Source of the DNA: an uncultured archaeon
GTDB taxonomy: Archaea; Asgardarchaeota; Lokiarchaeia; Sigyniarchaeales; SOKP01
Length of the DNA: 14,646 nt
Direction: 5' to 3'
Assembly (NCBI GenBank): GCA_964583985.1
Contig: CAZOYD010000079.1
Span: forward strand, 1-14,646
This document shows, in pieces, positions 4,758 through 14,646 of the stretch (position 1 is the stretch's first letter; the number at the start of each line of letters is the position of its first letter). The notes below the pieces were generated by a model that had not been told where the DNA came from, did no database searches, and worked only from the letters and a program-made list of their open reading frames with translations. The translations under genes and the position numbers were made by a program.

Positions 4758-5912
4758 ATGAAGATGGAAGAAAAACAGATCATAAAAGGAAATAATAATT
4801 TTTCAATAGCTATATTTCAAGCTTTGAAATCACCCAATGAAAATATATTCTTTTCATCTCTTAGCATTTACACAATTCTTTCAATTGTATTTGCTGGAGC
4901 CCGAGGTCTAACTGAAACACAAATTAAAGAGATTCTCCACATCAAACTTGATCAAAATCGATTCCATTCAGAGCTCAAGAAAATGTTAAGACTCTTTCAA
5001 CGTGATACAGGCTCAGAACTTAGCATGGCAAATTTATTATGTATTAATAATAATTATAAGCTACTTGAAAAATTTCTGTGGACTGTTGAAGATACTTATG
5101 GTGGAGCAATTTGGGAATTAGACTTCAATGCGATTTCAGATACTTGTTCGAAAATAAATTCATGGGTGGCAGAGCATACTCAAGGAAAAATAAAGGATGT
5201 TATTCATACACTTAATGAGGATCTTGGTATTTTATTAGTGAACGCTATATATTTTAAGGGTACTTGGGAAAATTTATTTAAAGAAAATGATACTAAAGAG
5301 GAAAAGTTTACATTACTTTCTGGCAATACGATTCTCGTTCCAATGATGCACCAAAAAAATAAATTTCGGTATTTAGAGGAAGATGGATGTCAAATCCTTG
5401 AAATGTCATATAAAGGGATAAGAGTTTTTGGCTCATTAGAACATATTTCAATGATTATCATCCTCTCTGAAAAGAAAGACGGAATTGAAAACATAGGAAA
5501 AAGTTTAACAAATGAAAAAATAGAAAATTACTTAGAAAAACTTAACCATATTTGGGAGAGAGAAATAAACGTTTTCTTCCCTAAGTTTAAAATTGAAACA
5601 AATTATGAGCTAAAAAAAATATTATTCAATTTAGGGATGACATCCGCTTTTTCTGATGGAGCAAATTTCTCAGGGATTGCTTTAGATCCCCCCAGATATA
5701 TTTCTCAAATCATTCATAAAGCATATATTGAAGTTAATGAGAGAGGAACTGAAGCTGCAGCTGTTACTGCAATTAGGGTATTAGGTGCTGGAATGGTTCC
5801 AATTGTAGAACCAAAAGAATTTCGTGCAGATCATCCCTTCTTTTTTCTGCTAGTAGACTCTAACACGAGAGCTATATTATTTAGTGGGAGAATTATGAAT
5901 CCCAAACTATAA
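4758..5912 (+). CDS. Serpin (serine protease inhibitor family), no signal peptide
   Basis: NIFFS.LSI, GARGLTETQI, INSWVAEHTQGKI, LVNAIYFKGTW, VPMM, PKFKIE, hinge EVNERGTEAAA, FRADHPFFF and ILFSGRIMNP. Confidence 0.97.
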   Translation: MKMEEKQIIKGNNNFSIAIFQALKSPNENIFFSSLSIYTILSIVFAGARGLTETQIKEILHIKLDQNRFHSELKKMLRLFQRDTGSELSMANLLCINNNYKLLEKFLWTVEDTYGGAIWELDFNAISDTCSKINSWVAEHTQGKIKDVIHTLNEDLGILLVNAIYFKGTWENLFKENDTKEEKFTLLSGNTILVPMMHQKNKFRYLEEDGCQILEMSYKGIRVFGSLEHISMIIILSEKKDGIENIGKSLTNEKIENYLEKLNHIWEREINVFFPKFKIETNYELKKILFNLGMTSAFSDGANFSGIALDPPRYISQIIHKAYIEVNERGTEAAAVTAIRVLGAGMVPIVEPKEFRADHPFFFLLVDSNTRAILFSGRIMNPKL

Positions 5913-10705: not shown

Positions 10706-11068
10706 ATGTCAGATGAACAATTATTACTTCTCCTCAACAATTTATTTGATAATGTTGATGGAGTGAGATCAGCTGCAATCGTATCGAAAGAAGGATTAAT
10801 TGTTCATTCCATATTAGAAGAGGGAATCATGGAATTAAATTTGGCAGCAATGACCGCTACAATTTTATCAGTAGCTGAGCGGGTGTTAGAAGAATTAAAA
10901 TCAGGATTACTGGATGTATGCATACTGCAAGGAGAAGAGGGGAATTTCGCAGTGATGGAAGCGGGAAGAGATCTAATTTTGGCATTATGTATAGATTTGG
11001 ATGCAAGAATGGATATTTGTTTCATAGAAATGCGTAAAACTTCAGATGCGATTAAAAACATGTTCTAA
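10706..11068 (+). CDS. Roadblock/LC7 (MglB-like) domain protein
   Basis: 120 aa; GVRSAAIVSKEGLIVHS, LAAMTATILSVAERVLEEL..G, ILQGEEG...VMEAG and a C-terminal helix give the canonical Roadblock pattern. Confidence 0.92.
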   Translation: MSDEQLLLLLNNLFDNVDGVRSAAIVSKEGLIVHSILEEGIMELNLAAMTATILSVAERVLEELKSGLLDVCILQGEEGNFAVMEAGRDLILALCIDLDARMDICFIEMRKTSDAIKNMF

Positions 11069-11170: not shown

Positions 11171-11185
11171 AATAGAGTTTATAAA
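11171..11185 (+). promoter_or_regulatory. Candidate BRE/TATA promoter of radA
   Basis: Purine-rich AATAGAG followed by TTTATAAA (11178-11185), ending 33 nt before the radA ATG, which fits a short-leader archaeal transcript. The AT-rich background lowers specificity. Confidence 0.45.
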
Positions 11186-11217
11186 ATACACTAAAATTTA
11201 ATCAACTGTGATTAATT

Positions 11218-12492
11218 ATGGCTAAAGCAAGTGAAATTGAAGAAGAAAGTAATATTGAAATGGGGAAACCATATTTTTGTACCGAATGTAAGCGAAATCA
11301 CACAAAAGGTAAGATTTATAAGGAGCACGCGGAATTTGCTCGATTCGAAGATGAAGAAGAAAATAAAGAAGAACTAGAATTAGAAAATGATAAAAAAGTA
11401 ATCGAAGATGAAGAATTAGATGAAGAAATAGGAAGCGATTACGATGATGATGCAGAACTAGAAGAAGCATTTCATGAGTTAGAAGAAATGGAAGAAGAAC
11501 CAGATTATGATGATGATGCAGAACTAGTGTCGATTGATGGAGAACCTTTAGAAGGCGTTGATGCTGTCAAAAAATTACCAGGAGTTGGAGAAGCTACACT
11601 AAAAAAGTTAATTAAAGCAGGATTTGGGAGTCTTGAATCCATTGCATATACCCCTCCTTCCATCATTCAAGATGCTTCAGGTTTAGGAGAAAAAACTACA
11701 AGTAAATTAATTAAATCTAGCATGCAAAAGCTAAATATCGGATTTAAATCCGCTGAGGTGGTTTGGGAACATAGAAAAAATATTGCCCGAATTACAACAG
11801 GAAGCCAAGAGTTAGATGATCTCCTTGGAGGCGGTCTTGAAACTGGATCTGTAACAGAATTTTTTGGAGAATTCAGAACAGGAAAAACTCAAATTGCTCA
11901 CCAATTATGCGTGAATGTGCAATTAAAACGAGAGCAAGGTGGTTTAGAAGGAACTGCCTTGTATATCGATACAGAAGGCACGTTTAGACCAGAACGCATC
12001 ATTCAAATGGCTGAAGGTTTAGATCTTGATCATAATGAAGTTCTTAAAAACATCATTTTCGGAAGAGCTTATAATTCTGATCATCAAGTTCTCTTGATAA
12101 AAGAAGCTGCAAGTTTGATTAAAGAAAAAAACATCAAATTAATTATAGTGGATTCGGTAATTGGACATTTTAGAAGTGAGTATGTTGGTAGGGGAACTCT
12201 AGCAAACAGACAACAATTAATTAATGTTCATCTTCATGATCTATTAAGATTATGTGATATTTATCCCGATTTAGCAGTAATGATTACTAATCAAGTACAG
12301 TCCAAACCAGATGTGTTTTATGGTAATCCATTACAAGCAGCGGGAGGAAATATTGTTGCTCACGGTTCTACTGTAAGGCTGTATTTGAGAAAAGGTAAGG
12401 GTGAACAGAGAGTAGCCAAAGTTGTCGACGCACCCCACTTACCTGAAGGAGAAGCAGTTTTTAGCATTACAGAACATGGAATTTCAAATTAA
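11218..12492 (+). CDS. radA: DNA repair and recombination protein RadA with N-terminal zinc-finger/acidic extension
   Basis: HhH LPGVG, polymerisation motif [20 protein letters not shown], Walker [21 protein letters not shown], Walker [27 protein letters not shown] and [10 protein letters not shown]. Confidence 0.97.
11437..11527 (+). repeat. In-frame 25-nt direct repeat (DYDDDAEL x2) in radA acidic region
   Basis: GATTACGATGATGATGCAGAACTAG (11437-11461) and GATTATGATGATGATGCAGAACTAG (11503-11527): 24/25 identical, 66-nt period. Confidence 0.9.
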
Positions 12493-12586: not shown

Positions 12587-14646
12587 TTATTTCAATTTAT
12601 CCATTTCCTTTGCTTTATTCGTGAGTCTTTTTACTTCTTTCATCATATCAGTAACACCCAATTTAAAGATCTCGGAAGCAATCTTTGAAGCATCTTTGAA
12701 ATTTGCTGCTGATTTAGCATAGTCCTTTTTCTTCATGGCGTCTTTTGCTTCTAGTTCCACTAGTTTTTTTTGGTGTTGTAAGTCTTCTATTGTAGTTTTC
12801 CTTATATTTTCCTGTAATTCAATGAATTCGGTCGATAACTCCCAATTTGATGCAATGACTGCTGCTCTACGATAAGTTTCAATTGATTTTATAAAATCTT
12901 TTTTATTTTTCAGACTATTTGCTGCTTTTATCAGGATTTTCAATTGCTTCTTGGCTGTTTTCTTATCCTCTATGACGGTTGTTCCCACTTTTGATTTTAT
13001 TGGAGCAGAAACTATCTCTTGATGTGATGTAAAACTTGCAAGATAAGCTTCTCTTTCAACAGGACCCACTTGAGATAGATCAGAAACCAACTTTTGTTTC
13101 TCTTCATTTGTTAAGTTTGTTATTTTTGAGACTTTCTGATTTATAAGGTTTATTTCTTGTTGAGATATTGGTTGAGCTTCTATTGCAGAAATTTCAATTG
13201 GAATTAGTATCTTTTTGTCTCTTAGCTCTTTGATACCCATAAATATTTCTGCAGTATCTCTATTTGTCGATTCACTGGCTTGTTTAAGTAGAGTGGCTAT
13301 GAAGAAAAATTTCCTGTCTGCTTCTTCACAACAAGTATGAGCAACTTTCAAAATTTCTCTTGAATGAGATGTCTTTAAATCTTTAACATCTGAAAAATCG
13401 TAGGATATTCGGTGAGGCAATATTATGGAAGTGTTGAGAAGATCATCAACGATTTGACCTGCATTTATGAAATGATTAAGCTGTCCTCTCCATTTTGGCA
13501 AAATGTCCTTGTAAGCATTTTCAAAAGCTTCGATAAATCGCTTCAAGTGTCTTCGAAGTATCAACGACCCTTTCTTAGCTAAAACTAATGCAACTCTAAT
13601 ATAAACTCCATCCGCTAGCAATAACATTTTATCTCCATAAGAAATTTCATTTAACGCTTCTTGTGCAACCATTTCCTTTCCAAACGATGATACTGCTGTA
13701 AGAAATCCACCAATTAACTCGGGATCAATTACTTCAGAACCATATGATTTGAAGAAAATACAAGTCCCCGTTCCTTTGTATAAAACTAGTATATGCTCTA
13801 AATTAATAGCATCATCAAAGATGGTTTTCACTTCAGTTAATATCCGTTGTTTCTCCCGTTTTTTAGGAACTACCACTCCTCTATATACACCTACTGAAAC
13901 AGCAGTAGCTAAAACCAATATTCCGATAAGAATAAAATAAGGAATTAAATCCGAAAATGAAAATGCGGGATTTATTCCAATATCTGCAATGTAAATAAAG
14001 GTTGATAAGTGGTAGTATGCAGTTGCGAGGATAACAGTAAGATTCATAGTGAGAGCGTTAATATTGACAATGATCTCAAATTCAGACTCCCCCGTACCGT
14101 TTGTTATGACTGGATTTAAAGTGGCAGCAGCAATTCCATTGAAGAAAGGTGTGATTTGTATCTCTGATCCTTGGATTGGCAACCAAATTCCATTGAAATA
14201 TTCCGCTCTTAATACTAATGTAAACGTATTTCCTGCATCAACATTTGGTGGTTGATACACTGAAATTAACCTAACTTGATATTTCGCAATAATGGTAAGA
14301 TTGAAGGCGAAAGAAGCATTCTCGTAATTGACCTTTGAAATCGTAATATTTATCAAATATCTACCCGGAACTAGAGCAGGATTTGATGTAAATATTGTCC
14401 CAATATGAGATTGAGATAGAAAATTCAGATTTTCAACAAGCGTACCACTGTCATTATTACCAAGATTAAGGTAATGTACTAAATAGGTGTCAACATCACC
14501 AATTACTAAGCTATCAAGGAATTCTGAATCGGTGATATTGAAATTAATATCTATATCACTTCCTTCAAAAATCGTATAGTTATTAATACCGCTAGGAGAA
14601 AGAAGCCCTCCAGGATCTTCCATGGAAATGAGATTTATCTGTGTAT
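12587..14646 (-). CDS. Large single-pass membrane protein (5'-partial): beta-rich glycosylated ectodomain, TM, cytoplasmic longin-like domain, helical C-terminus
   Basis: The frame stays open past ATG 14623 to the window edge (..TQINLIS-MEDP). There are 8 N-x-S/T sequons before the TM (13868-13948), a basic stop-transfer PKKREKQR, then HILVLYKGTGTCIFFKSY...DPELIGGFLTAVSSFGKE, typical of Asgard longin-like domains. Confidence 0.8.
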   Translation of the reverse strand, partial: TQINLISMEDPGGLLSPSGINNYTIFEGSDIDINFNITDSEFLDSLVIGDVDTYLVHYLNLGNNDSGTLVENLNFLSQSHIGTIFTSNPALVPGRYLINITISKVNYENASFAFNLTIIAKYQVRLISVYQPPNVDAGNTFTLVLRAEYFNGIWLPIQGSEIQITPFFNGIAAATLNPVITNGTGESEFEIIVNINALTMNLTVILATAYYHLSTFIYIADIGINPAFSFSDLIPYFILIGILVLATAVSVGVYRGVVVPKKREKQRILTEVKTIFDDAINLEHILVLYKGTGTCIFFKSYGSEVIDPELIGGFLTAVSSFGKEMVAQEALNEISYGDKMLLLADGVYIRVALVLAKKGSLILRRHLKRFIEAFENAYKDILPKWRGQLNHFINAGQIVDDLLNTSIILPHRISYDFSDVKDLKTSHSREILKVAHTCCEEADRKFFFIATLLKQASESTNRDTAEIFMGIKELRDKKILIPIEISAIEAQPISQQEINLINQKVSKITNLTNEEKQKLVSDLSQVGPVEREAYLASFTSHQEIVSAPIKSKVGTTVIEDKKTAKKQLKILIKAANSLKNKKDFIKSIETYRRAAVIASNWELSTEFIELQENIRKTTIEDLQHQKKLVELEAKDAMKKKDYAKSAANFKDASKIASEIFKLGVTDMMKEVKRLTNKAKEMDKLK

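Follow-up and report, generated by a model that had tools for sequence, protein, structure and literature searches.

A C2H2-like finger fused to the N-terminus of a conserved RadA paralogue in one family of Lokiarchaeia

Recombinases of the archaeal RadA and eukaryotic Rad51/Dmc1 type are recognized by a helix-hairpin-helix (HhH) domain, an FxxA motif serving polymerisation and an ATPase core with Walker A and B motifs. RadA paralogues have been reported in some Asgard lineages and, less robustly, in Lokiarchaea (PMC12722695). Here we describe a RadA encoded on a stretch of 14,646 nucleotides from an uncultured archaeon of the Lokiarchaeia (contig CAZOYD010000079.1 of assembly GCA_964583985.1; the whole stretch is called the window below). 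It shares the HhH domain, the GFxxA motif, Walker A and B and the whole ATPase core with archaeal RadA and Rad51/Dmc1 but differs from them by about 113 extra N-terminal residues, which consist of a finger-like head and an acidic linker. The protein is a conserved, lineage-specific domain fusion on a recombinase and involves a previously undescribed finger family: full-text searches of the published literature gave no description of the head, and the words ‘zinc’, ‘N-terminal’ and ‘extension’ are absent from the main text of PMC12722695 according to a term search.

The recombinase part of the protein is unambiguous in Pfam, with matches to Rad51 (PF08423, residues 186–423, E 2.6e-96, 322 bits against a cut-off of 22) and HHH_5 (PF14520, residues 116–166, E 4e-8, 34.1 bits against a cut-off of 27), and its core reached 324 bits in a Rad51 search of its own genome. 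The ATPase core, the HhH domain, Walker A and an FxxA-type motif by which RadA/Rad51 proteins are identified are all present, and judged by their sequence the HhH domain, the polymerisation motif and the ATPase core are intact and functional-looking. For residues 1–115 no Pfam model matched at E up to 1, the zf-C2H2 models included, and reading the sequence of the N-terminal extension revealed no F-x-x-A and no FxxA- or BRC-like motif.

The head is centred on the sequence G16-K-P-Y-F-C21-T-E-C24-K-R-N-H28-T-K-G-K-I-Y-K-E-H37-A-E-F-A-R-F43 with the spacing C21-x2-C24-x3-H28-x8-H37, and residues 16–43 are basic (seven Lys and Arg against three Asp and Glu). The Cys/His pattern is kept in 120 of the 120 best homologues, which are 405–437 aa long, begin with MAKA-like starts and, where a source is named, belong to Promethearchaeota or carry other Asgard names used by single studies. 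Most of these homologues align along the full query, and the others do so in separate pieces because the linker is variable. A comparison of 96 distinct N-termini showed M1, A2, K3 and A4 to be invariant or nearly so and Y19, C21, E23, C24, H28, K30, G31, K32, I33, H37 and A41 to be invariant, and the finger can be summarized by the family signature PY[YF]CxxCxRxHx[KR]GKIYxxH. The ligand counts in the 120 homologues, as well as those in the 98 profile matches described below, are unfiltered, in contrast to our finger alignment A3, whose members were picked by their Cys/His pattern so that the invariance of the four ligands in it is by construction.

That the finger is part of the protein follows from the substitution pattern. 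When finger codons 18–41 of 29 orthologous loci were compared with the window we counted 58, 69 and 355 differences at codon positions 1, 2 and 3, respectively, and 284 synonymous against 96 non-synonymous codon differences. Due to this third-position bias and the excess of synonymous changes we conclude that the stretch is translated and under purifying selection. Upstream of the start codon a TATA-box-like element is found which would act as promoter, with a matching element (C/T)TATAAAAAT(T)ACAC at equal distance in 12 orthologous loci, followed by a GTGAT that presumably serves as ribosome-binding site and has GATGAT or GTGAT as its counterpart at the same place in the orthologues. A downstream start, for example at Met91 (position 11488), can be rejected because of the conserved MAKA start, the codon-position pattern reflecting purifying selection and the conservation of both upstream elements. 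Thus, the start at 11218 postulated in the original prediction stands, as do its reading of the finger and the acidic tract (with 11218–11346 corresponding to residues 1–43) and its expectation that the Cys and His residues are conserved in orthologues.

The finger appears to derive from the C2H2 class. An hhalign comparison with 67 classical C2H2 units gave a probability of 95% (E 3.3e-8, 22 columns), with the knuckle lying on the classical knuckle, H28 on the conserved Phe, Y34 on the conserved Leu and H37 on the first His; this 11-residue C2H2 knuckle is also the only resemblance to solved structures that could be found by sequence. With classical fingers of the Kruppel/TFIIIA type (C-x2-4-C-x12-H-x3-5-H) the head shares the (E/G)KPY-x-C-x2-C knuckle, the 12 residues leading to H37 and a hydrophobic residue, Y34, at the place of the Leu. 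In contrast to them it has no second His three to five residues past H37, where A41 is invariant instead, and positions 38–43 contain no His or Cys in the window and none that is conserved among the homologues. Furthermore, the core Phe four residues past the second Cys is replaced by the invariant H28, and the RadA finger occurs as a single copy and not as an array. On these sequence features we regard it as a C2H2-like finger with a shifted ligand set rather than a member of the classical family, most likely binding one zinc ion via C21, C24, H28 and H37 and most likely adopting a beta-beta-alpha fold of the C2H2 type. An AlphaFold2 (AF2) model of residues 12–50, computed from a 105-row alignment, shows a beta-hairpin (19–21/26–28) and a short helix (32–36).

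The Cys/His pattern could also be metal-free and represent a conserved short linear motif or a small fold without metal, as the classical fourth ligand is absent and no structural match confirms a zinc site. We consider this very improbable, since none of the 120 RadA homologues deviates in its two Cys and two His, their exact spacing recurs in 80 of the 98 unfiltered profile matches and the homology to zinc-binding C2H2 knuckles is significant. Bacterial RadA/Sms likewise carries a finger-like element at the N-terminus of a RecA-superfamily protein named RadA. However, Sms combines a DnaB-like helicase with a C-terminal Lon-like domain, has a KNRFG motif and uses four Cys ligands, whereas the ligand set of the window protein is of the C2H2 type, and neither Pfam, which found only Rad51-type and HhH domains, nor profile searches detected a sequence relationship. 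Sms is a different family, as already stated in the original prediction, and the shared name is coincidental. Similar in appearance are the CCHHC fingers of MyT1/NZF and the retroviral CCHC knuckles, small modules built on Cys, Cys and His in which, as in the RadA finger, a His follows closely on the second Cys; a distance of 12 residues between second Cys and second His is found in CCHHC fingers, too. Their Cys spacing differs, however, their terminal Cys ligand is absent from the RadA finger, and neither group was retrieved by our sequence-profile or structure searches.

To see how far the head has spread, its profile was compared with Asgard genomes and it matched in 117 of the 133 genomes of the window's family. 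Two sister families (7 of 14 and 1 of 4 genomes with a match) showed weak matches or matches to other proteins, and about 250 Asgard genomes outside the order yielded only two marginal ones. Among Asgard RadAs the finger head is essentially a feature of one family, in agreement with the lineage-specific module that had been proposed. Scanning one genome per species of 185,579 species with a degenerate DNA pattern for Y-[YF]-C-x2-C-x3-H-x2-G-K-I-Y-x2-H resulted in at least 115 matches, nearly all of them in metagenome-assembled genomes of Promethearchaeota. The few apparent carriers among bacteria and Bathyarchaeota were judged to be mis-binned contigs since they encode a Lokiarchaeal-type finger RadA or a small finger protein; three such cases, assigned to Mesohalobacter, Bathyarchaeota and Nanopelagicaceae (L097, L109 and L144), are probably binning errors.

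In IMG/VR the same degenerate pattern gave one match, a 465-aa finger RadA on a contig of 225 kb. A viral origin of the finger is not supported by this result because the sole match is another finger RadA, and the ‘viral’ contig itself may be cellular. Two standalone finger proteins, however, lie within phage-like runs of small open reading frames (ORFs). For the window RadA an origin from a mobile element is ruled out by its presence in 117 of 133 family genomes and by its ordinary chromosomal neighbours, which include genes for a Roadblock/LC7 protein, an aspartokinase, a TrkA-N protein, a ferredoxin, a serpin, a glycosyltransferase and others.

The window protein is identified as RadA by Pfam and motifs but is not the only RadA of the organism, as the genome (3.8 Mb, 138 contigs) encodes three strong and two weaker members of the Rad51 family. 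A second close paralogue, the plain RadA P0121 (330 aa), lacks the head and is 68% identical to the window protein across 305 residues. The third, divergent paralogue P0122 (417 aa, L003:1183-2436 (-), contig C8 of genome G000) is 42% identical; it has an acidic stretch and an extra HhH-like segment C-terminal to its core, a mirror image of the N-terminal heads. Forms of about 335 aa and of about 415–440 aa are both present in nearly every good genome of the family. We reconstructed a maximum likelihood tree of 63 RadA cores (quick search, with support values only from the Shimodaira–Hasegawa-like approximate likelihood ratio test, SH-aLRT), in which the finger RadAs are monophyletic (SH-aLRT 99) with a 364-aa RadA without finger from one genus as their sister (93), while the short RadAs form a separate clade (99) and the RadAs of all other Asgard families another one (100). 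The branching order among the Lokiarchaeal RadA clades is not settled by this tree. The duplication into finger and plain RadA took place inside the Lokiarchaeia and is distinct from the Rad51/Dmc1 split, which has been placed after the divergence from the known Asgard RadAs (PMC12722695). Between genomes the core of the finger paralogue is 85–95% identical compared to 77–91% for the short paralogue (five matched genomes), and because its core is the more conserved one, the finger copy is not a decaying duplicate.

A look at the same position in related proteins showed that the finger is not the only head on an Asgard RadA. In genus g2 of the same family (L049, L057) a long RadA carries an extra N-terminal HhH (…IPGIGNATAKKL…) and an acidic linker and no finger; genomes of this genus also encode the 364-aa sister of the finger clade. 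In two other families RadA begins with Lys-rich tails followed by acidic linkers, and in many other Asgard RadAs a brief basic N-terminus precedes an acidic-aromatic motif such as DYEDFE. The order of basic head, acidic linker, HhH domain and core is shared by all of these heads, whereas a Cys/His finger serves as the head only in this clade. From these sequences, a basic head with an acidic linker can be described as the general layout of Asgard RadAs, the finger being one clade's version of it. The premise of the original prediction that RadA starts with a short tail consequently fails for Asgard RadAs, many of which have this layout.

A profile search with the finger among 1.84 billion representative proteins returned 98 matches, 80 of them with the exact Cys/His spacing, which comprise N-terminal fragments of RadA, many small proteins and other fusions. 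From the other 18, 13 are of the array type and were matched at several stretches, mainly via an EKPYxCxEC knuckle (11 of these 13 with classical C2H2 units), three have a loop longer by one residue and two are truncated. According to Pfam the fusion partners are Top6A/Spo11, HIRAN, ParB_N, T5orf172/MUG113 and an AAA ATPase. The search for such partners, which had been suggested along with the prediction, thereby showed the finger to be a separable domain with other, mostly DNA-related, partners. In the Top6A/Spo11 fusion (L042:2214-3452 (+), genome G223) the finger is N-terminal to TP6A_N and Toprim; with about 47–50% identity to the usual Top6A of the family this protein is probably an extra or divergent copy. 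The HIRAN proteins of 550–616 aa (L045:45-1694 (-), P0188) have the finger directly upstream of the HIRAN domain. Finger proteins without clear family range from 632 to 1619 aa and show a weak match to an ‘effector-associated domain’; the largest of them, a Lokiarchaeal protein (L036:2529-7385 (+), also L163), begins with the finger, has ‘effector-associated domain 8’ below the cut-off and may be a conflict-system protein. Recurrent in Lokiarchaeia is moreover a protein of 85–93 aa (L092, L110, L131, L138, L156 and others) in which a short acidic stretch joins the N-terminal finger to a helix conserved at the C-terminus, LRPIAKRQ(L/I)xRLLKKM…LYxxEIxKLI; this protein matched no known family. 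Pfam and PHROGs gave no match for the RadA head, and for ten other standalone or fused members none above the cut-off; one AAA fusion had a weak zf-met match below it (E 0.0013). In the window's own genome the finger is found on RadA only.

Taking these results together we favour, with moderate confidence, the reading that a zinc-stabilised basic head, attached by a flexible and perhaps self-inhibiting acidic tether, provides RadA with an extra contact to DNA or brings it to a DNA structure. The basic finger would act as an additional head contacting DNA or nucleic acid and would tether RadA protomers or filaments to DNA or direct them to a particular DNA structure, with the acidic linker giving reach and perhaps inhibiting the protein itself by folding onto basic surfaces. 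Three observations point to a role related to DNA: the finger is basic, its partners are mostly DNA-related proteins and the equivalent heads of related RadAs, namely the HhH and the Lys-rich tails, are DNA binders, this last observation being the main comparative argument for a contact to DNA.

Several points speak against this assignment. H28 is proposed as the fourth ligand by elimination, since the classical last ligand is absent. The finger model is only moderately confident (predicted local distance difference test, pLDDT, 77), and the full-length AF2 model has a mean pLDDT of 57, with poor values reaching into the core itself, for which a shallow alignment (about 75% identity) is the probable cause; it is uninformative on whether the head docks onto the core. 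A Foldseek search of the 39-residue finger model against the PDB gave no E below 2.6, the top ranks being classical C2H2 fingers of which none is significant, and with VIA-align no Z of 2 or more was obtained in a second look and a wide search. These structure searches did not reach significance because a domain of 39 residues is too small for the scores used. In addition, the Top6A/Spo11 fusion is found in one genome only, the AAA ATPase and the partners of 632–1619 aa are not obviously DNA proteins, and a C2H2 finger that stands alone is as a rule not large enough to bind DNA strongly or specifically. C2H2-type fingers can also bind proteins. The predicted complex of the head (1–115) with HhH domain and core (116–424), scored 0.00 and run without controls, speaks neither for nor against binding.

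The ability of C2H2-type fingers to bind proteins leads to another explanation, in which the finger is a protein-binding tag docking RadA and its other carriers onto one conserved Lokiarchaeal hub, for example a chromatin protein, a clamp, RPA or a ubiquitin-like modifier as in the case of UBZ-type C2H2 fingers, which read ubiquitin. The nearly invariant surface of K30, G31, K32, I33, Y34 and K35 across the RadAs would fit one fixed ligand, [KR]GKIYxxH is largely retained in unrelated fusion proteins, and the partners are diverse and include the AAA ATPase and the large proteins with the weak effector-associated-domain match. A DNA backbone, however, is equally a ‘fixed ligand’, the equivalent heads in related RadAs bind DNA and most partners of known family act on it; we regard a protein tag as rather unlikely.

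A different role could be deduced from the linker. In the window it comprises about 70 residues, half of which (~50%) are Asp or Glu, and in 120 orthologues it is 54–81 residues long with a median Asp and Glu fraction of 0.51 and a Lys and Arg fraction of 0.03; its pLDDT is low in the full-length model. The motif [YF]x[DE][DE]x[DE][LIFV]x[EDQ][AV][FL] is found in the linker of 61 of the 120 orthologues, and the full-length model suggests a helix at residues 77–89, with low confidence. Because only 61 of 120 orthologues possess it, the motif is less fundamental than the finger. As acidic tails regulate RecA-family proteins, the head might control RadA from within, with finger and linker pairing with each other or with the DNA-binding surfaces of RadA and thereby gating filament assembly, an auto-inhibition that would be relieved by DNA or a partner without any targeting role. 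The combination of a basic head and an approximately 50% acidic linker as the general layout of Asgard RadAs would agree with this, and so would the conservation of the acidic-aromatic helix motif in about half of the orthologues. The other half lacks the motif while the finger is invariant, the same finger occurs on proteins without acidic linker and the full-length model contains no confidently predicted intramolecular contact; such a purely internal regulation is in our view distinctly unlikely.

Going beyond the DNA-contacting head that we favour, the finger could be a Lokiarchaeia-specific address label sending proteins of DNA transactions (finger RadA, some Top6A/Spo11, HIRAN, ParB-like and finger-only proteins) to a shared target, which may be a DNA structure, a chromatin mark or a hub protein. 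We put this forward as a speculation with little weight. If true, finger and plain RadA would divide labour like Rad51 and Dmc1, a division that the archaeal group nearest to eukaryotes would have evolved on its own, and the small finger-only proteins could then compete with RadA for the target or regulate RadA.

The features of the gene and its upstream region are listed in Table 1. Upstream, 150 nt 5' of RadA, lies the gene for the Roadblock/LC7 (MglB-like) protein (10706-11068 (+), Pfam E 4e-13), and the serpin gene (4758-5912 (+), Pfam Serpin E 2.8e-113) is full-length. Converging on the 3' end of RadA is a gene for a protein of 678 aa (12587-14623 (-)) without significant Pfam match, whose C-terminal part is rich in Lys and Glu and for which a membrane segment is predicted. 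On the 225-kb IMG/VR contig (L087:4636-6852 (-)) a DNA methyltransferase-like ORF with an apparent LAGLIDADG-type intein-like insert, as far as can be read from the sequence, is located next to a finger RadA.

Table 1: Features of the finger-bearing RadA gene and its upstream region (positions in the window).
Feature	Position	Strand	Basis
TATA-box-like element TTTATAAAAT, ~31-40 nt 5' of ATG	11178..11187	+	sequence
GTGAT, Shine-Dalgarno-like, 5 nt 5' of ATG	11208..11212	+	sequence
Finger-bearing RadA paralogue P0001, 424 aa	11218..12492	+	ORF and Pfam; stop codon included
N-terminal peptide MAKA(S/T)E and variable spacer, residues 1-17	11218..11268	+	96 distinct N-termini
C2H2-like mini zinc finger, residues 18-43	11269..11346	+	invariant residues, AF2 model, hhalign
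Proposed ligand codons C21, C24, H28, H37	11278-11280, 11287-11289, 11299-11301, 11326-11328	+	sequence
Acidic linker, probably disordered, residues 44-113	11347..11556	+	composition, low pLDDT
Acidic-aromatic helix motif in linker, residues 74-90	11437..11487	+	orthologue comparison
Partial second copy of linker motif, DYDDDAELV, residues 96-104	11503-11529	+	sequence
Canonical RadA N-terminal HhH domain, residues 114-171	11557..11730	+	Pfam HHH_5
GFKSA at FxxA polymerisation-motif position, residues 175-179	11740..11754	+	sequence; aligns with GFKPA of short paralogue
RecA-fold ATPase core, residues 186-423	11773..12486	+	Pfam Rad51
Walker A GEFRTGKT, residues 217-224	11866-11889	+	sequence; aligns with plain paralogue

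In summary, two close RadA paralogues are maintained in a large family of Lokiarchaeia, and the better conserved of them carries an accessory head of its own, while elsewhere such accessory functions are supplied by separate mediator proteins. The compact Cys2-His2 head is located outside of the curated families and recurs on DNA enzymes (Top6A/Spo11, HIRAN, ParB-like), which makes it a reusable module. As a prokaryotic relative of the classical C2H2 finger with shifted ligands it bears on the origin of this mostly eukaryotic domain. Furthermore, the natural pair of a plain paralogue and a head-bearing RadA offers an experimental handle on how DNA-binding heads and acidic linkers tune recombinase filaments.

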